Shown here: one piece after another, positions 2,145 to 9,515 of the stretch
Position numbering within the stretch: position 1 is the stretch's first letter
Layout: every line of letters starts with the position of its first letter
Origin: Campylobacterota bacterium
GTDB taxonomy: Bacteria > Campylobacterota > Campylobacteria > Campylobacterales > Sulfurimonadaceae
DNA length: 39,630 nucleotides
NCBI GenBank assembly: GCA_034717975.1
Contig: JAYEMF010000089.1
Span: forward strand, 1-39,630
Direction: 5' to 3'
Notes under the pieces: generated by a model
Told to the model about the DNA's origin: nothing
Databases searched by the model: none
What the model saw: the letters and a program-made list of their open reading frames with translations, nothing else
Position numbers and translations under genes: made by a program

Positions 2145-2219
2145 GGCCCCATCATCTAATGGTTAGGATTCAAGGTTTTCATCCTTGCCATAGGGGTTCG
2201 AATCCCCTTGGGGTCACCA
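2145..2219 (+). tRNA. tRNA-Glu (anticodon TTC)
   Basis: Acceptor stem GGCCCCA/TGGGGTC, anticodon arm CAAGG-TTTTCAT-CCTTG, T-loop GGTTCGAATCC and encoded CCA. TATAAT at 2109-2114. Confidence 0.97.
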
Positions 2220-2323: not shown

Positions 2324-2617
2324 ATGAAAAAACTCTTTTTACTACTACTATTTGCAGCAAGTCTTATGGCTGGCGACTTAGGAAAAGCACTTGAAGCAGC
2401 CAAAAAAGGTGATTATGAAACTGCAGTTTCATTATGGAAACCATTGGCTGAGCAAGGTGAGGCAGGTGCACAGTACAATCTTGCAGTATCATACTGTCTT
2501 GGCAATGGTGTTGAAAAGGACCTGAAGGAATGTGCTTACTGGGCTAAAAAAGCGTACCAAAACGGAAGAGACACTTCAAGGCTTTGGAATGATTTTGACC
2601 TTAAGAGTCATCAATAG
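2324..2617 (+). CDS. Secreted Sel1-repeat protein
   Basis: Signal peptide. LAEQGEAGAQYNLAVSYCLGNGVEKD..AYWAKKA is a Sel1 repeat. SD AAGGA. Confidence 0.85.
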   Translation: MKKLFLLLLFAASLMAGDLGKALEAAKKGDYETAVSLWKPLAEQGEAGAQYNLAVSYCLGNGVEKDLKECAYWAKKAYQNGRDTSRLWNDFDLKSHQ

Positions 2618-2814: not shown

Positions 2815-3324
2815 TCACTTAGCCCACCATATCCGTAGATACAGGCCGATCGCAGAGGTATACCCTACTTCGGTAAATGCGAGGTTGCCTTCACTGTCAT
2901 AGATGAAAGTTGTTGGATAGGCAGCTACAGAAAACCTATCAGATAAACCCATCTCGTCATTCAACACTTTAAATGTCAGGTCGCGCTCTTTCATGTAGGT
3001 TGAAAGCTGAGTATTAGAACCTGATTTAACGGCTATACTGAGGACGGAGAAATGGTTGGCTACCCAGTCAATATTGCCGGCTTCAGTTTTACAGGTTGGA
3101 CACCAGGTGGCCCAAAAATGGATCATCAAAGGCTCTCCTTTTACAGAAGCAGTTGTAAAAGCTCTGTTATCGATAAGCGTTGCTTCGATTTCAGGAAGTG
3201 TTTGTGATGGAAGTTCCGGCCGCTTAAGGTAGCTGATGACATTTGCCATGACAATGATGATGACGAGTAGCTTTAACGTTTCAATCGAATAACGTTTAAG
3301 CTTGCTTATTAGTTTTTCTTTCAT
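2815..3324 (-). CDS. Membrane-anchored TlpA-like thioredoxin/redoxin
   Basis: N-terminal TM helix, HFWATWCPTC and YPTTF cis-Pro motif. Confidence 0.88.
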   Translation of the reverse strand: MKEKLISKLKRYSIETLKLLVIIIVMANVISYLKRPELPSQTLPEIEATLIDNRAFTTASVKGEPLMIHFWATWCPTCKTEAGNIDWVANHFSVLSIAVKSGSNTQLSTYMKERDLTFKVLNDEMGLSDRFSVAAYPTTFIYDSEGNLAFTEVGYTSAIGLYLRIWWAK

Positions 3325-3537
3325 ATTTGACTCGATTTGTCACTCATCGCTCTATTGTCTTCCATGCATCACACTCATCTTGAATCGATATCAAGGAGTA
3401 GAAGTTTGAGAAGAATATTGTAGGTAAAACAACAGATGCAAGTGACATTTTCCTAGATTTTCGTGATTTTTACCGGCCATGATTCCTGGATAGCCTCTAA
3501 AATAAACAGTTTACCCTATGTTCTATAATAACTGATT

Positions 3538-3546
3538 TGATAAAAT
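3538..3546 (+). promoter_or_regulatory. Extended -10 promoter for glnS
   Basis: TG-A-TAAAAT, 41 nt upstream of the ATG. Confidence 0.55.
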
Positions 3547-3587
3547 GCGGTTCTTAATACACTTTCAGCATCAAAAGGTTCATAATA

Positions 3588-5849
3588 ATGAGTGAGCACA
3601 AAGATTTTTTACGTACAACAGTTGATCAGGACTTGAAATCAGGTAAATATAAAGAGGTGGTCACAAGATTTCCTCCGGAGCCTAATGGATTCCCACACAT
3701 TGGACACGCCAAATCTATCATAATCAATTTTGGTATCGCCAGTGACTTCAATGGTCACTGTTACCTTAGAATGGATGATACAAATCCAACTACTGAAGAC
3801 ACGAGATATGTAGAGGCTCTTAAAGATGCTGTACAGTGGCTTGGATTTGACTGGGGAGATAATGTACATTTTACTTCCAACTATTTCCCTGAACTATACG
3901 ATTATGCCATTGAACTTATTAAAATGGGCAAGGCATACGTTGATAGTCTGGACGAAGATGAGATACGTGAATATAGAGGGACTGTTACAGAGCCCGGAAA
4001 ACGCAGTAAATATGCCCAACGCAGTGTTGAAGAGAACCTGGACCTTTTTGAAAGAATGAAAAATGGTGAGTTTAAAGACGGTGAACATGTGCTAAGAGCC
4101 AAGATCGATATGTCTGCTGCCAATATGAAAATGAGGGATCCGCTTCTGTATCGCATCAGACACGCCCACCATTATAGAGCGGGGGACGAGTGGAATGTTT
4201 ACCCGATGTATGACTTTGCTCACTGTTTGTCTGACTATCTTGAAGGGATTTCCCACTCTCTTTGTACCCTGGAGTTTGAAAACAACCGTGAGATTTATGA
4301 CTGGGTACTTGACACGCTTGGGCTTGAAATGCCACGCCCTTACCAGTATGAGTTTGCGAGACTGGGTATTAACTATACGGTTATGAGTAAAAGAAAGCTT
4401 TTAGAATTGGTAGAAGGTGGACAAGTCAGTGGCTGGGATGATCCTCGTTTGCCTACGATTGCCGGATACAGACGAAGAGGTTATACGCCGGAATCTATTT
4501 TAAACTTTTGCGATCAGATAGGGATAGCAAAAGCAAACTCAATGGTTGATGTTTCACAACTTGAATTTTGTATCAGAGATGATCTGAATAAAAAAGTACC
4601 GCGTGTGCTGGCGGTGCTTGACCCGCTAAAAGTAACTATCGAAAATTATGAAGGTCACGAAGAGATTGATGCTCCATACTACCCCCATGATGTACCTAAA
4701 GAGGGTTCAAGAAAGATACCTTTCTCAAAAGAGATATATATTGAGCGTGATGACTTTATGGAGAATCCTCCAAAAGGTTACTACCGTCTTACCCCTGAAC
4801 AGCCGGTAAGACTTAGACATGGTTACATTATCACTTGTAAGGAAGTCATTAAAGATGCTAGCGGCAATATCGTAGAGATAAAAGCGCAATATCACCCTGA
4901 CTCTAAAAGTGGCTCAGACAGTAGCGGTATCAAAGTAAAAAGTGCTATTCAGTGGGTGAGTGCTAAAGAGGCTAAAACGGTAGAAGTAAGACTGTATGAC
5001 AGACTATACTCCTCAGAGACTCCGGAAGGGTTGGAGGACTTAAACCCTCACTCTCTACAAGTTATTAAAAATGCCCTTATTGAACCTGCTGTAATAACCG
5101 AGAAACCTGATGAGAGATTCCAGTTTGAAAGACAGGGGTATTTTTATACTGACCCTATTGACTACACTGATGAAAAACCTGTATTTAATAAAATTGTCGG
5201 TCTTAAAGACTCTTGGGGAAAAAAGAAAAAAGCACCCAAGAGCGAACCTAAGCCTCAAGCTAAAAAAGTACAAGTAGATGGTGAAGTAGCACCTATGAGT
5301 GATCACGAACAAACACTATTTGACAAGTACACTGGTGAGCTTGGACTAAACAGCGAAGTAGCTAATACGCTAGCGCGTGATGAGAAACTGTCTTCTTTTT
5401 ATGAAGAGGCACAATCAGTTCTTAATAGTCCTGTAGGTCTAGCTAACATTGTGGCAAATGAAGTAGCTAGAGAACTAAAAGAAAAACAATCAGATGAACT
5501 GAAATTTAATGCTGCGCAGATAGCTGAGCTAGTTAAAATGGTTGATGATGGGACTATTTCAAGCAAGATTGCCAAACAAGTATTTGAAGAGATGACTAAA
5601 ACAGGAGAAAATCCAATACAAATAGTTGAAGATAAAGGGCTTGTACAGATAAGTGACCCTGCTGAAATTTCACCTATTATCGATGAAATAATTGCAAAAA
5701 ATCCAGACAATGTTGATAAGTTTAAAGCAGGTAACACCAAGCTTTTAGGCTTCTTTGTGGGGCAAGTACTAAAAACCACAGGGGGCAAAGCAAACCCGAA
5801 GGTCGTGAATGAGCTTGTAGCTGAGAAGTTATCTTCACTCGGTTTTTAG
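3588..5849 (+). CDS. glnS: Glutamine--tRNA ligase with C-terminal GatB/YqeY domain
   Basis: TRFPPEPNG, HIGH, VMSKRK, GWDDPR and QFERQGYF motifs. The C-terminal extension has ISSKIAKQVF, GLVQISD and GFFVGQVLKTTGGKANP, typical of GatB/YqeY. Confidence 0.95.
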   Translation: MSEHKDFLRTTVDQDLKSGKYKEVVTRFPPEPNGFPHIGHAKSIIINFGIASDFNGHCYLRMDDTNPTTEDTRYVEALKDAVQWLGFDWGDNVHFTSNYFPELYDYAIELIKMGKAYVDSLDEDEIREYRGTVTEPGKRSKYAQRSVEENLDLFERMKNGEFKDGEHVLRAKIDMSAANMKMRDPLLYRIRHAHHYRAGDEWNVYPMYDFAHCLSDYLEGISHSLCTLEFENNREIYDWVLDTLGLEMPRPYQYEFARLGINYTVMSKRKLLELVEGGQVSGWDDPRLPTIAGYRRRGYTPESILNFCDQIGIAKANSMVDVSQLEFCIRDDLNKKVPRVLAVLDPLKVTIENYEGHEEIDAPYYPHDVPKEGSRKIPFSKEIYIERDDFMENPPKGYYRLTPEQPVRLRHGYIITCKEVIKDASGNIVEIKAQYHPDSKSGSDSSGIKVKSAIQWVSAKEAKTVEVRLYDRLYSSETPEGLEDLNPHSLQVIKNALIEPAVITEKPDERFQFERQGYFYTDPIDYTDEKPVFNKIVGLKDSWGKKKKAPKSEPKPQAKKVQVDGEVAPMSDHEQTLFDKYTGELGLNSEVANTLARDEKLSSFYEEAQSVLNSPVGLANIVANEVARELKEKQSDELKFNAAQIAELVKMVDDGTISSKIAKQVFEEMTKTGENPIQIVEDKGLVQISDPAEISPIIDEIIAKNPDNVDKFKAGNTKLLGFFVGQVLKTTGGKANPKVVNELVAEKLSSLGF

Positions 5850-5857
5850 TTCCAAAC

Positions 5858-5866
5858 TGGTAAAAT
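5858..5866 (+). promoter_or_regulatory. Extended -10 promoter for the gltX2-yggT-slt operon
   Basis: TG-G-TAAAAT followed by SD GGAG before ATG 5890. Confidence 0.6.
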
Positions 5867-5889
5867 CGCGAAAAAACTATGGAGCTGCA

Positions 5890-7188
5890 ATGTTGCGTTT
5901 CGCACCTTCCCCCACCGGTGATATGAATATCGGGAGCCTCCGTGTCGCCATCTTCAACTCACTGATATCGAAACAGCGAAATGAACCGATGATCGTTCGC
6001 ATCGAAGATACTGATACCGAGCGTAATATTGAAGGCAAAGATAAAGAGATCCTTGACCTTCTTGGACTGTTCAACATCGAATACACGGATGTAATCCATC
6101 AGAGCAATCATCTTCGTTATCATCGAACCATGGCCATTCAACTGTTACACGAGAAACAGGCTTTTAACTGCTTTTGTACACCGGCAGAGCTTGATAAAAA
6201 ACGTGAACTGGCCAAAGCCGACAAGGTCGCGTTCCGATATGATGACGCCTGCCGCCATCTTACTCCGGAAGAGACGATCGATAATGAGAACCCGTTTACC
6301 ATTCGTCTTGTCAAGCCTGCAAATGCTGTTGTCGTTAACGATAAAGTAAAAGGCGAGATCAGTTTTGATCCTGACGACATCGACAGTTTTATCATTATGG
6401 GTGCCGAAAAACACCCGACATACAACTTTGCCTGTGCTGTAGATGATATGATCAGTGATATATCACTTGTTATCCGGGATGAAGACCATATGAGCAACAC
6501 GCCTAAGCAGATTACAGTACGTGATGCGCTGGGGTATGACAAAAAGATTGAATATGCCCACTTGCCGACCATCCTTAATGATGAGGGAAAAAAGATGAGC
6601 ATGAGTGACGATGCGTCAAACGTCAAGTGGCTGCTTGAGGAGGGTTACCTGCCTGAAGCGATTGCCAACTACCTGATTCTGATCGGGAATAAACCACCGC
6701 AGGAGATCTTCACAGTGGAAGAAGCGGTGTCGTGGTTTGATCTTGAAAGTATTTCAAAGGCCCCTGCCCGTTTCGACACGGATAAACTGAAGTTCATCAA
6801 CCGTGAGCACCTCAAACGTATGGATGTCAAAGAGCTGTCACGTTATGTCGGTTTTGCTGATGACGACATCGGTCAGATCGCCCGTATCTATCTTGAAGAG
6901 GCGGATACGCTTAAGGAGCTGCGTTCTAAAATCGAGCCGATCTTTGCCGAAAAGCAGGTTCCCGAAGCCTTTAATGAAGCTGCTGAAAAACTGAAAACCG
7001 CAATGCAGTCGGCTCCGTTCTTTGAAGAGTTTGATGACTTTAAAAACTATCTTATCAAAGAGACCGGTCTAAAGGGGGAATTCTTTTCTAAACCGGTTCG
7101 TCTTCTACTGACAGGTACTGAACATGGTCCTGAGCTGGCAGACATTTACAAATATCTTAAAAACTATCTTGGGGAGATCGTCAAATGA
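5890..7188 (+). CDS. gltX2: Glutamate--tRNA ligase 2 (GluRS2 type) with divergent catalytic motifs
   Basis: MLRFAPSPTGDM, RIEDTD, PTYNFACAVDD and SNTPKQ motifs. Same gltX2-yggT-slt order as in Helicobacter/Campylobacter. Confidence 0.9.
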   Translation: MLRFAPSPTGDMNIGSLRVAIFNSLISKQRNEPMIVRIEDTDTERNIEGKDKEILDLLGLFNIEYTDVIHQSNHLRYHRTMAIQLLHEKQAFNCFCTPAELDKKRELAKADKVAFRYDDACRHLTPEETIDNENPFTIRLVKPANAVVVNDKVKGEISFDPDDIDSFIIMGAEKHPTYNFACAVDDMISDISLVIRDEDHMSNTPKQITVRDALGYDKKIEYAHLPTILNDEGKKMSMSDDASNVKWLLEEGYLPEAIANYLILIGNKPPQEIFTVEEAVSWFDLESISKAPARFDTDKLKFINREHLKRMDVKELSRYVGFADDDIGQIARIYLEEADTLKELRSKIEPIFAEKQVPEAFNEAAEKLKTAMQSAPFFEEFDDFKNYLIKETGLKGEFFSKPVRLLLTGTEHGPELADIYKYLKNYLGEIVK

Positions 7189-7481
7189 GTACGCTAGGGA
7201 GCATTGTTTTAGGATTAGGTGGAATTATTCATTCATTGATTACGATCTATATCTGGGTGCTGATCATCGCCGCGGTGATCAGCTGGGTCCGTCCTGATCC
7301 ATATAACCCTATCGTGCAGATACTCGCACGCTTGACAGAGCCTGTCTATGCCCTGCTTCGTCAGCGTGTCTCTACTGTCTTTAACGGCATTGATCTTGCA
7401 CCGATCATCATTATTATCGGCCTTCAGATCATCGATGTTATTTTTGTCAATCTTATTAACGGACTTGCTGCATCATTATGA
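7185..7481 (+). CDS. yggT: YggT family membrane protein
   Basis: ISWVRPDPYNPIVQILARLTEP and GIDLAP motifs. ATGA overlap with gltX2. Confidence 0.9.
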   Translation: MSTLGSIVLGLGGIIHSLITIYIWVLIIAAVISWVRPDPYNPIVQILARLTEPVYALLRQRVSTVFNGIDLAPIIIIIGLQIIDVIFVNLINGLAASL

Positions 7482-9094
7482 TTCGCTTTTTAGCACCTCT
7501 GCTTGCTATTACCGTGCTTCATGGGTCAGTCACCCTTGAAGAGATCAATGAGAAGCCATCTGGTCACTTTAAAAATTTTCTTATATGGCAGTACCTTAAG
7601 CAGGATATTACACCGCAGCAAGCCGATCAGGCCTTTTATCAGGTCCGTCATGTAAACAAAAGATTTTTTAAAGCCTATGCTGAGAAAACGGATGATGAAA
7701 GTGTGAAATACACACTGGATTGCTGGAACCAAACCGCGCAACAGCTGTTCGATAACAGTAATGACGACTGTAGCAAACTTGCCCTCTCCCCCAATACAGC
7801 CGTGCAGTTGAGTATTGAAGAACGGCACACCCTCAGCAGGCGTTTTGCCGATACGACAGATGCCAAATGGCTCGCGATGCTCAGTGATACCAACATGTCA
7901 CAGAACCTTGAGTCTTTTGATGCTAAAACATTTTTAAAAGTCGCTAACGGCGCCGGCTCGCAATTTCGTTTAGAACATTTCAATCAGAGACTCTCTCCTG
8001 AGTTTACGGCAAAGCTGGAAGCGGCACCTGGGTTTTCAACCTTTGTGCGCCTGGTCATTATGGATGACAAGCTAAACCAGCTGCAGCGTGCCCTGCTGGA
8101 TGCACTCAGTATGAAAGCCAATGCGCAGACAAGCTTTTTTCTGGCGCTCAACCAGATCCGCTTCCATCAAAAACATGAAGCACTGCTGCTGCTTGAGAAG
8201 GTCTATGAAACAGCTTATTTTCGTATGGACAGAGACAAGGCGCTTTTCTGGAAATATCTGATCACTGATGATGTTGGCGTGCTCGAGAAGTTGAGTGAAA
8301 GCAGTGACCTGAATATCTACTCCATCTATGCCAAAGAGCTGTTGAAAAAACCCATCGACAACTATTTTACAAAACTTAAAACCAGTGACGAAAAAACAGA
8401 TCAGGACATTACCGACCCGCTAGTGTGGAAAAGTATCCTGGATGAGATCAGATCAACTCCGAAGGATGATCTTTTTAACCTTGCGACAAAGTATCAGAAC
8501 AGCTCGCTGATCGGCGTTCAGGGCTTTATCCTCGAGCGGGCTTCGGGCTATAGGATGCACAACTACATTATGCCGTATGAAAAATCGATGTCAGGCTTGA
8601 GCAGTGACGACAAGGCAGTGATGCTCTCACTGATGCGTCAGGAGAGCCATTTTATCCCCTCGGCACTTTCACGCTCCTATGCGCTTGGGCTTATGCAGCT
8701 GATGCCATTTCTTGTCGAGCACCTCGATAAAGAGTTTACGCAGGAACGAACATCGTTTAATGAGATGTTTGCCCCGGAAAGAAATATCGCGTATGCCACC
8801 AAACATCTGTCGTGGCTGCAAGACCGTCTCTACCATCCGCTTTTTATAGCCTATGCATACAATGGCGGCATAGGGTTTACCAAAAAACATCTGCTTAAAG
8901 GAACGTTTCGTCCAGGCAGGTATGAACCATTTCTGAGTATGGAGATGATGAGTAATTCCGAGAGTCGTGAGTATGGAAAAAAAGTATTGGCAAATTATGT
9001 GATCTATAAAAAGATTTTAGGCCATAGTGTCTCTATTGTTCATCTTTTCGATACGTTAACTCAGCCAAACCATACAGACCGCTTTCGAAAGTAA
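7478..9094 (+). CDS. slt: Soluble lytic murein transglycosylase
   Basis: Signal peptide. RQES, ALGLMQLMP, AYNGG and ESREY motifs of the SLT domain. Confidence 0.9.
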   Translation: MIRFLAPLLAITVLHGSVTLEEINEKPSGHFKNFLIWQYLKQDITPQQADQAFYQVRHVNKRFFKAYAEKTDDESVKYTLDCWNQTAQQLFDNSNDDCSKLALSPNTAVQLSIEERHTLSRRFADTTDAKWLAMLSDTNMSQNLESFDAKTFLKVANGAGSQFRLEHFNQRLSPEFTAKLEAAPGFSTFVRLVIMDDKLNQLQRALLDALSMKANAQTSFFLALNQIRFHQKHEALLLLEKVYETAYFRMDRDKALFWKYLITDDVGVLEKLSESSDLNIYSIYAKELLKKPIDNYFTKLKTSDEKTDQDITDPLVWKSILDEIRSTPKDDLFNLATKYQNSSLIGVQGFILERASGYRMHNYIMPYEKSMSGLSSDDKAVMLSLMRQESHFIPSALSRSYALGLMQLMPFLVEHLDKEFTQERTSFNEMFAPERNIAYATKHLSWLQDRLYHPLFIAYAYNGGIGFTKKHLLKGTFRPGRYEPFLSMEMMSNSESREYGKKVLANYVIYKKILGHSVSIVHLFDTLTQPNHTDRFRK

Positions 9095-9515
9095 GCGAGA
9101 GCGTCTCTTTTTCATCGACAAGGTATGTGGCCAGATAGTAGTGATTCCACTCATTGTTAATCGGCATCAGTGACCGGAGGCTGTCTTCCTTGTCTACCTC
9201 ATGAATGGTGAGTGGCGGGTATGCGTTCATCGTCAGATTTATACTCTCCGTTGTCAGGTTACTGTCATTTTTCTGGTATAAGGCGACTAAAAAGTATTCA
9301 CCATTCTCATCTTTATAGGATTCGGGCATCGTTCTGTTCAGGTAGATCGCCGAGATAATAACTTTTGCTTCGCTATTTTTCACGATAGTTGCTGTACGCA
9401 TATTGTTGACGGCGCGCTCATGTACATCATCCATTTTGAAGGGATCAAATGCCGTGCTTTTTGAGCAGCCTGTCATGATGAAAAGTGATGTTAAAAAAAT
9501 AAAAAAAATATGCAT
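9033..9515 (-). CDS. Hypothetical lipoprotein
   Basis: Hydrophobic signal with lipobox MTGC. Occupies the conserved position between slt and mobB. Confidence 0.75.
   Translation of the reverse strand: MHIFFIFLTSLFIMTGCSKSTAFDPFKMDDVHERAVNNMRTATIVKNSEAKVIISAIYLNRTMPESYKDENGEYFLVALYQKNDSNLTTESINLTMNAYPPLTIHEVDKEDSLRSLMPINNEWNHYYLATYLVDEKETLSLTFESGLYGLAELTYRKDEQ

Follow-up and report, generated by a model that had tools for sequence, protein, structure and literature searches.

What becomes of an aminoacyl-tRNA synthetase when a second enzyme arrives that makes its step dispensable? The question is raised by a 39,630-nt contig of a Campylobacterota bacterium of the family Sulfurimonadaceae (JAYEMF010000089.1, assembly GCA_034717975.1; hereafter "the window", meaning the whole stretch), in which the gene for a second-type glutamyl-tRNA synthetase (GluRS2) lies directly downstream of a gene for a glutaminyl-tRNA synthetase (GlnRS, gene glnS). 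GlnRS provides the direct route to Gln-tRNA(Gln), and GluRS2 together with GatCAB the indirect one. A preliminary description of the sequence had pointed to altered catalytic motifs in this GluRS2, and had suggested that GlnRS made the enzyme redundant and that it is now either decaying or kept for a non-catalytic role. We find that decay of the GluRS2 motifs is associated with the presence of glnS among related genomes, and we consider it probable that the redundant GluRS2 lost its catalytic constraint after the gain of GlnRS and was kept as a conserved pseudo-synthetase, rather than persisting as a decaying pseudogene. The features on which the argument turns are the following.

5890..7188, plus strand: GluRS2 orthologue with degenerate catalytic motifs, 432 aa, ATG start (open reading frame list, TIGR00464, Pfam and tree)
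5926..5937, plus strand: HIGH-type motif, reading NIGS (H13N, N16S), residues 13-16; canonical GluRS2 has HIGN
6169..6258, plus strand: putative zinc-binding motif C94-x-C96-x24-C121-x-H123, from the translation
6400..6402, plus strand: R171G, from the alignment with relatives
6475..6489, plus strand: RGEDH motif, reading RDEDH (G197D), residues 196-200, from the translation
6592..6606, plus strand: KMSKS-type loop, reading KMSMS (K238M, R239S), residues 235-239; canonical GluRS2 has KMSKR
3588..5849, plus strand: glnS, encoding GlnRS with a C-terminal GatB/YqeY domain, 753 aa (NF011291, 1233.7 bits, cut-off 681; TIGR00440, 710.7 bits)
5850..5889, plus strand: spacer between glnS and the GluRS2 gene, 40 nt, from the sequence, with GGAG at 5881-5884

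The product of 5890..7188 is a full-length bacterial GluRS by its match to TIGR00464 (420.7 bits, cut-off 289.95; profile positions 3-455 of 470), with the PF00749 catalytic domain at residues 3-301 and the PF19269 anticodon-binding domain at residues 322-422. In a tree of 55 rows it falls inside the clade of the tRNA(Gln)-specific GluRS2, which is split from three GluRS1 sequences with a support of 100; within this clade the window genome (G000; the G-numbers denote the genomes compared) groups with G001 and G002, as it does in the GluRS1 tree. The three motif readings of the preliminary description are exact by translation, and the forms HIGN/RGEDH/KMSKR, which it had taken as canonical, are indeed the consensus of GluRS2 from genomes without glnS (glnS-minus). 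Reading NIGS, the window protein has neither the class I HIGH signature (H-phi-G-x) nor the H-phi-G-N form given for GluRS2 (PMC3927822), and with KMSMS it also lacks the second Lys of the K-[LM]-S-K-R loop. Altogether, six of the 103 sites that are near-invariant in glnS-minus GluRS2 are altered (H13N, N16S, R171G, G197D, K238M and S244N), at least four of them in or beside the three signature motifs. Arg171 is conserved in glnS-minus GluRS2, and the GluRS1 of the window genome, the sole GluRS1 inspected at this position, has Arg as well; a literature search on roles of the equivalent residue found nothing. DNA contigs from four runs (one study, possibly the source sample) span codons 13, 197 and 238 with no alternative letters listed, and the substitutions are therefore not assembly errors.

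The main comparison covers 61 genomes (G000 and 60 relatives), of which 53 have a GluRS2-type match and 23 carry glnS, in every case of the fused type of approximately 750 aa. The GluRS2 motifs of glnS-minus genomes almost always read HIGN/RGEDH/KKMSKRD (HIGN or HLGN is usual, with one HVGN), whereas those of glnS-plus genomes are damaged in various ways, in the extreme case with the entire KMSKS loop missing. When 11 core positions are scored (H13, G15, R196, G197, E198, D/E199, H200, K235, M/L/I236, S237 and K238), at least one mismatch is found in 21 of 22 glnS-plus genomes and in 1 of 29 glnS-minus genomes (G044, in which E198D is the GluRS1 state); these counts leave out G024, whose sequence is partial, and G036, whose glnS status is uncertain. 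H13, G15, R196, G197, E198, H200, K235, S237 and K238 are invariant in 28 of the 29 glnS-minus sequences, with the first His of HIGH and K238 kept in all 29, and the loss of three of these matches in G000 (H13N, G197D and K238M) is therefore more than chance. The same three substitutions recur independently elsewhere, in glnS-plus lineages only: H13N in G003 and G058, G197D in G003, G018 and G020, and K238M in G012 and G029. The sites lost most often in glnS-plus genomes are R171 and K234 (18/22 each), K238 (17/22), and G197, A293 and K395 (13/22 each), and in nine relatives the KMSKS loop is deleted or fully replaced (G003, G005, G017, G018, G020, G025, G027, G033 and G039).

The association holds when relatedness is taken into account. 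With the GluRS1 tree (41 rows) as a species proxy, nine phylogenetically independent pairs differ in glnS, and all nine differ in the same direction (9:0; sign test p = 0.0039). As a guard against circularity, 123 conserved sites were defined on 15 glnS-minus GluRS2 sequences from other families; in the window's own family, 2-9 of these held-out sites are changed in the 14 glnS-minus genomes versus 8-60 in the 18 glnS-plus genomes (15 in G000); the values for G002, G036 and G033 are 15, 24 and 43. The association also has predictive value, since glnS was present in four of five further genomes chosen for degenerate motifs and in none of five chosen for canonical motifs. For replication we turned to 151 genomes of the family with a completeness of 90% or more, and searched them with a glnS model and with a degenerate DNA pattern that encodes G-K-K-M-S-K-x-D. 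The pattern occurs in 6 of 67 glnS-plus and in 76 of 84 glnS-minus genomes (5/50 and 64/72, respectively, when only the 122 genomes not used earlier are counted), and a reversed control pattern gives 0 matches. It misses conservative variants such as GRKMSKRD, and this form accounts for G077 among the eight glnS-minus genomes in which the pattern is absent. The uncorrected Fisher p of approximately 1e-25 is overstated, since the relatives are non-independent. By each of these counts GluRS2 decay tracks glnS, in line with the preliminary description.

The controls locate the damage. GlnRS keeps PEPNGFPHIGH and V/MMSKR in 26 of 26 sequences, and in the window GlnRS the HIGH motif (PEPNGFPHIGH) and VMSKR are intact; GluRS1 keeps HIGG and KLSKR in 41 of 41 sequences and RGDDH in 40 of 41. 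The damage is therefore specific to GluRS2. The usual genomic context of GluRS2 is the presence of GluRS1 and GatCAB and the absence of GlnRS; the window genome (149 contigs, 99.9% complete) departs from this in having an intact GlnRS directly upstream. A canonical gltX1, which the preliminary description had expected elsewhere in the genome, lies on contig C129 (564.2 bits; HIGG/RGDDH/KLSKR). Profile searches for gatA and gatB found both genes, and no asparaginyl-tRNA synthetase (AsnRS) scores over the cut-off in the window genome (best match 96.4 bits versus 342.6). GatCAB is still needed for Asn-tRNA because no AsnRS is found, so that its presence says nothing about the function of GluRS2. 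The two tRNA-Gln(UUG) genes of the genome are identical in sequence, and we rejected on that ground the idea of a separate tRNA(Gln) isodecoder for each enzyme. That GlnRS made GluRS2 redundant is an interpretation supported by the intact neighbouring GlnRS, by the canonical gltX1, by decay that tracks glnS, and by a relaxation of selection.

This relaxation is approximately twofold and is seen in GluRS2 only. Maximum-likelihood codon models (fast runs without gamma) give a dN/dS ratio (omega) for GluRS2 of 0.099 in glnS-plus genomes (20 genes) versus 0.049 in glnS-minus genomes (14 genes), while the corresponding values for GluRS1 are 0.078 (16 genes) and 0.073 (14 genes); dS is saturated for most pairs, and all of these are rough, upper-bound-style values. 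The comparison of dN/dS that had been suggested for this locus thus comes out in favor of relaxed, but not absent, constraint. Pairwise values were taken only from pairs with finite dS, most being undefined or saturated. The least saturated pair, G001-G002 (dS 0.66), gives 0.146 for GluRS2 versus 0.052 for GluRS1, and where the KMSKS loop is deleted or replaced in both members of a pair, the values are 0.12-0.23, with 0.229 for G017-G020. An omega of 0.025 obtained for the nine loop-deleted genes was rejected as saturated (tree length 65). The GluRS2 tree is broadly congruent with that of GluRS1, and GluRS2 has therefore been inherited vertically; in GluRS2 the terminal branches of glnS-plus lineages exceed those of their glnS-minus sisters by a factor of approximately 1.5-3, which is not the case in GluRS1.

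Low omega and open frames bear directly on whether the gene is a functionless remnant in early neutral decay, with no stop or deletion as yet. Such a remnant would agree with the short terminal branch of G000 (0.15), with the faster evolution in glnS-plus lineages, and with neutral simulation, in which 14% of frames are still open at 0.05 substitutions per site; the gene is, moreover, gone in G046 and G054. We nevertheless consider a remnant unlikely. No internal stop is found in any of the 53 GluRS2-type matches, whereas at 0.2 neutral substitutions per site the simulated frame collects 6-8 stops and is open in at most 0.0005 of runs. The 22 glnS-plus copies include three pairs whose KMSKS loop is deleted or replaced; in these the dead state is apparently older than the split, and the members are now 51-58% identical; omega is approximately 0.1-0.23, and the changes in G000 spare conserved sites outside the active site. 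Within the window gene the contigs of the four runs show five variants, four of them synonymous, and these within-population variants, together with the few conserved-site changes, fit constraint outside the active site of G000. As between the two fates proposed in the preliminary description, retention fits the evidence better and decay less well, there being no interrupted copy and an omega far below 1.

The pattern of conservation within the protein points the same way. C94, C96 and C121 are kept in 23 of 23 degenerate GluRS2 sequences, and the nine genes with the loop deleted or replaced share the blocks AFNCFC, IDN..PF..R.K.P, DDML.DIS, NYL and ELSR.VGFAD..IG..AK (the last at residues 301-345), while erosion affects the regions of HIGH and KMSKS and the final part of the anticodon-binding domain. 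Taken as a set, the glnS-plus sequences combine lost motifs with continued purifying selection, which is what defines a pseudo-synthetase; for G000 alone the basis of this assignment is indirect.

A number of observations weigh against this reading, in addition to the saturation of dS already mentioned. For G000 taken alone, the inactivation may be very recent. Two of the glnS-plus genomes, G002 and G033, were scored as such only after a lenient search had found glnS fragments at contig ends (in G002, 82% identity over residues 1-92 and 91% over residues 718-750; in G033, 81% over residues 1-26); the same lenient search found no fragment in the canonical G034 and G024, nor in G036. No glnS was detected in five genomes with a degenerate GluRS2, namely G084, G167 and G173 (93-95% complete), G036 (81%) and G061. 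These five count against the reading, since the same decay in lineages lacking glnS would speak against redundancy as the cause, and G084, G167, G173 and G036 may be such lineages. Conversely, G010, G123, G158 and G185 are glnS-plus with a fully canonical GluRS2 core, and redundancy therefore does not force fast decay. At the other end, G046 (100% complete) and G054 (99%), from other families, carry glnS and have no GluRS2 at E <= 0.001, and this clean loss means that any retained role is dispensable in some lineages. Finally, the window protein keeps the residues aligned with the glutamate-binding network of the enzyme (R3, D186, R196 and Y178), so that residual activity is possible.

The genomes that stand outside the general rule can be described further. 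Among the six glnS-plus genomes with the KMSKS pattern, G009, G178 and G181 have other core losses, and only G123, G158 and G185 are fully canonical. G186, which is glnS-minus and without the pattern, contains a glnS fragment. G163 is without GluRS2 and also without yggT, which suggests an assembly gap, and G105 and G165 have one GluRS match each among the matches listed. The genomes as a whole form a graded series, from both enzymes intact (G010, G123, G158 and G185) through point losses (the window) and deletion of the KMSKS loop to absence of the gene (G046 and G054). As a separate observation, five genomes from other families of the same order (G037, G043, G050, G051 and G056) lack glnS and show only one match, of the GluRS1 type. 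Presumably a single non-discriminating GluRS suffices there, which would make a third way of obtaining Gln-tRNA in the order.

Might the window GluRS2 simply be active, with its substitutions tolerated and the direct (GlnRS) and indirect (GluRS2 and GatCAB) routes running in parallel? Conservation is strong, with no more than the six changes among 103 near-invariant sites, GatA and GatB are encoded, and glnS does coexist with a canonical GluRS2 in the four genomes named above. The network residues R3, D186, R196 and Y178 are placed by a constant offset of 9 from Thermus thermophilus numbers. In the T. thermophilus enzyme, R5, D195 and R205 form a network with Tyr187, and Arg205 binds the substrate glutamate (PMC2978374). 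By motif offset R196 would be the equivalent of Arg205, and G197D would set an acidic side chain beside it. We regard parallel routes as quite unlikely, for three reasons. The HIGH His and the second KMSKS Lys are invariant in 29 of 29 glnS-minus GluRS2 and in 41 of 41 GluRS1 sequences. The same positions are lost repeatedly only in the company of glnS, with nine relatives reaching deletion or replacement of the KMSKS loop. In class I synthetases these two residues stabilise the transition state of adenylate formation. Their loss would strongly cut adenylate formation, and the window GluRS2 most likely forms little or no Glu-tRNA(Gln), as judged from its motifs.

Our preferred reading, a redundant enzyme kept as a pseudo-synthetase, corresponds to a sequence of events that we infer as follows. 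A Sulfurimonadaceae genome would have acquired a functional YqeY-fused GlnRS, with its gene directly upstream of that for GluRS2. GlnRS would make Gln-tRNA(Gln) directly, GluRS1 would charge tRNA(Glu), and GatCAB would be kept for Asn-tRNA(Asn). Now redundant as an enzyme, GluRS2 would lose constraint on its ATP and glutamate site, as represented by the six changes in the window protein, while purifying selection continues on the frame, on the residues that determine the fold, on the Cys-x-Cys...Cys zinc motif and on the block 301-345, as in more than 20 related glnS-plus lineages. The resulting pseudo-synthetase would be kept for an aminoacylation-independent role, with complete loss of GluRS2 as a rarer end point.

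Changes in charge suggest that tRNA binding may have been lost along with catalysis. The median net charge of GluRS2 is approximately -16 in glnS-plus and -5 to -6 in glnS-minus genomes, with -22 for the window protein. Salt adaptation as the full cause of this acidic shift was rejected: GluRS1 shifts too but less (median -16 versus -12, as compared with -16.5 versus -6 for GluRS2), so that only part of the shift is gene-specific. The lost positive charges sit in the KMSKS loop, at R171 and at K385-K401, and at K234, K238 and K395 replacements by Glu far outnumber those by Arg. These charge losses would amount to a loss of tRNA binding, and the Lys-to-Glu reversals might stop a dead enzyme from sequestering tRNA(Gln).

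What the retained role might be is a matter for a more tentative proposal, to which we give a little less than an even chance. In this proposal the GluRS2 of Campylobacterales has a second, aminoacylation-free function, residing in the zinc-motif/acceptor-binding domain and the 301-345 block, for example docking to GatCAB, and the arrival of GlnRS unmasked it; the ATP site is lost in at least nine independent lineages, together with the KMSKS loop and the lysines that bind tRNA, while the rest of the protein goes on evolving at an omega of approximately 0.1. The GluRS2 of Helicobacter pylori makes direct but labile contact with GatCAB and can deacylate Glu-tRNA(Gln) (PMC3241645), and Chongdar et al. 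have hypothesized that contact with GatB is the reason for the zinc-binding domain of GluRS (PMC4381286). A structure prediction for the complex of GatB and GluRS2, run without control pairs, scored 0.00 against a mark of 0.32 and is evidence neither way.

The genes that follow GluRS2 introduce a further possibility. The first list is here extended by the remaining features of the locus.

2145..2219, plus strand: tRNA-Glu(UUC), from an ARAGORN scan of the entire genome, which has it in three identical copies
7185..7481, plus strand: YGGT-family membrane protein, 98 aa (PF02325, 65.7 bits)
7478..9094, plus strand: lytic transglycosylase with an SLT domain (PF01464), 538 aa, the third gene of the gltX2-yggT-slt row

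The GluRS2 stop overlaps the yggT ATG (ATGA, 7185-7188), and the gltX2-yggT(-slt) row, which in the window occupies 5890-9094, is conserved across the order, with the YGGT gene adjoining GluRS2 in 99 of 109 related loci. Selection could in principle act only to keep the frame open, if translation through GluRS2 were needed for expression of the overlapping yggT-slt genes. This explanation predicts an omega near 1, whereas the values found are 0.1-0.23, with conserved blocks and zinc-motif cysteines; in addition, in G046 and G054 the yggT-slt pair persists behind unrelated genes with no GluRS2, and the downstream genes therefore need no GluRS2 frame. We think it very improbable. Recruitment of GluRS2 to a new catalysis that does not use HIGH and KMSKS, for which one can cite active GluRS paralogues with other substrates, such as GluQRS (and a weak GluQRS match of 164.9 bits, cut-off 276.7), is hardly credible, because different lineages lose different active-site residues, and some the whole KMSKS loop, which is the signature of relaxation, and no new invariant residues appear in the degenerate set beyond those of canonical GluRS2.

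The closest known system is that of H. pylori, whose GluRS2 belongs to the same clade of the tree, has the same 432-aa two-domain architecture, and likewise co-occurs with GluRS1 and GatCAB; the gltX2-yggT-slt neighbourhood exists there too, and the row is also present in Arcobacter and Aliarcobacter loci. The H. pylori protein is an active enzyme, in contrast to which the window protein has NIGS/RDEDH/KMSMS and R171G, is more acidic, and lies beside a GlnRS. HisZ offers another comparison, being an inactive aminoacyl-tRNA synthetase paralogue that is under selection and has a defined role with its partner HisG. The window GluRS2 shares with HisZ a synthetase fold without aminoacylation motifs, but here the motifs went recently, more than once and in connection with the gain of a gene. 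GluQRS (YadB) has a homologous catalytic domain, and the weak match mentioned above (TIGR03838, below its cut-off) is the best to that family; it is truncated, whereas the window protein keeps its anticodon-binding domain PF19269, and it retains the catalytic His and Lys that the window protein has lost. Deinococcus keeps GatCAB and is not known to have an AsnRS, which resembles the window genome, but it has a single discriminating GluRS and no known GluRS2 relic, whereas here the displaced enzyme is still encoded in the adjacent gene. The GlnRS of D. radiodurans carries a C-terminal YqeY domain (PMC1865053), which is the same fusion architecture as that of the window glnS.

The co-occurrence of GluRS2 with YqeY-appended GlnRS was already published in 2014, when GlnRS was reported in 6 of 10 epsilon-proteobacterial genomes, all with GluRS2 (Dasgupta & Basu 2014, PMC3927822). 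The same paper describes the presence of GlnRS as erratic within genera, derives it from Deinococcus-Thermus by horizontal gene transfer, and calls GlnRS "possibly non-functional", since GluRS2 is always present. Our results point in the opposite direction, in that the GlnRS motifs are invariant (26/26) and it is GluRS2 that degenerates. The term "KMSKS" occurs 0 times in the available text of PMC3927822, and we found no report of GluRS2 catalytic-motif decay in the open full-text literature, a scope outside which subscription journals and the supplements of 2014 fall. The decay therefore appears to be new, as a case in which a known gene gain turns the orthologue of a known enzyme into a pseudo-synthetase.

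The comparative evidence indicates that the GlnRS route is the working one in glnS-carrying Campylobacterales, which would reverse the published guess. Because approximately half of the Sulfurimonadaceae species carry glnS (67 of 151), the family offers dozens of sister contrasts on the displacement of an essential translation enzyme, from coexistence through point inactivation and loop deletion to loss. That purifying selection still acts on an apparently dead enzyme suggests a second role of GluRS2, which could be searched for in cultivable Sulfurimonas and Sulfuricurvum; if the proposal of a second function is true, an essential synthetase would have been converted to a pseudoenzyme in a process replicated by nature, with every stage caught. 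There is also a practical consequence for annotation. With 420.7 bits the window protein passes the NCBIfam equivalog cut-off of 289.95, as does a relative with the loop deleted (369.9 bits), and both would be named "glutamate--tRNA ligase", with the result that pathway reconstructions would wrongly infer an active indirect Gln route.

As regards expression, the preliminary description had called the frame, the promoter and the Shine-Dalgarno sequence intact. The frame is open and of full length, and GGAG at 5881-5884, 5 nt upstream of the GluRS2 ATG, agrees with the Shine-Dalgarno sequence; the promoter is unconfirmed, since a scan for sigma-70-like consensus found no site in the 40-nt spacer (and 9 sites in 3300-9300, versus a shuffle mean of 11.0). 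By eye only, TGGTAAAAT at 5858-5866 is an unverified candidate for an extended -10 element, and co-transcription of glnS and GluRS2 is equally possible. A look-up of RNA data sets listed none for 3588-7481.

The window GlnRS comprises the Pfam domains PF00749, PF03950, PF20974 and PF02637 (the last at residues 604-748). Its YqeY/GatB-like tail (5296-5846, residues approximately 570-753) matches GatB models at 133-156 bits, and many short, high-depth contigs from other organisms map to 5700-5800, evidently a widely conserved segment. A free-standing frame of 164 aa that is 45% identical to this tail occurs in G034 (C20:2052-2384), where no glnS was detected. Two further glnS loci are unusual. 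In G064 (via L132), the match at C20:3345-4727, from model position 61, contains one in-frame TGA, either a sequencing error or a pseudogene, and the GluRS2 of this genome has its KMSKS loop deleted. G181, with 4% contamination, has two glnS matches of equal score (C1:305956-307521 and C9:29334-30899), which represent a duplication or two strains binned together.

The glnS gene adjoins the GluRS2 gene in 9 of 26 GlnRS loci, in tandem in four (G000, G025, G058 and L131) and divergently in five (G003, G005, G027, L074 and L136); in G158 and G178 the two are likewise divergent neighbours. Loci with this adjacency occur in scattered positions on the GlnRS tree, at a frequency far above that of random insertion, and an ancestral insertion site, transfer by recombination in flanking gltX2, or co-regulation are possible causes. 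The internal branches of the GlnRS tree are too short to separate one ancient gain with losses from repeated transfer. Upstream of glnS are an AhpC/TSA-redoxin family protein (2815-3324, minus strand) and a Sel1-repeat protein (2324-2617, plus strand); neither gene is found beside GluRS2 in the 109 related loci, and the region upstream of glnS is therefore not conserved. Contigs C35, C92 and C111 carry tRNA-Glu genes, and a fourth tRNA-Glu, differing in sequence from the three identical copies, lies on C111 between two tRNA-Asp genes; H. pylori presents a similar situation with two tRNA-Glu isoacceptors.

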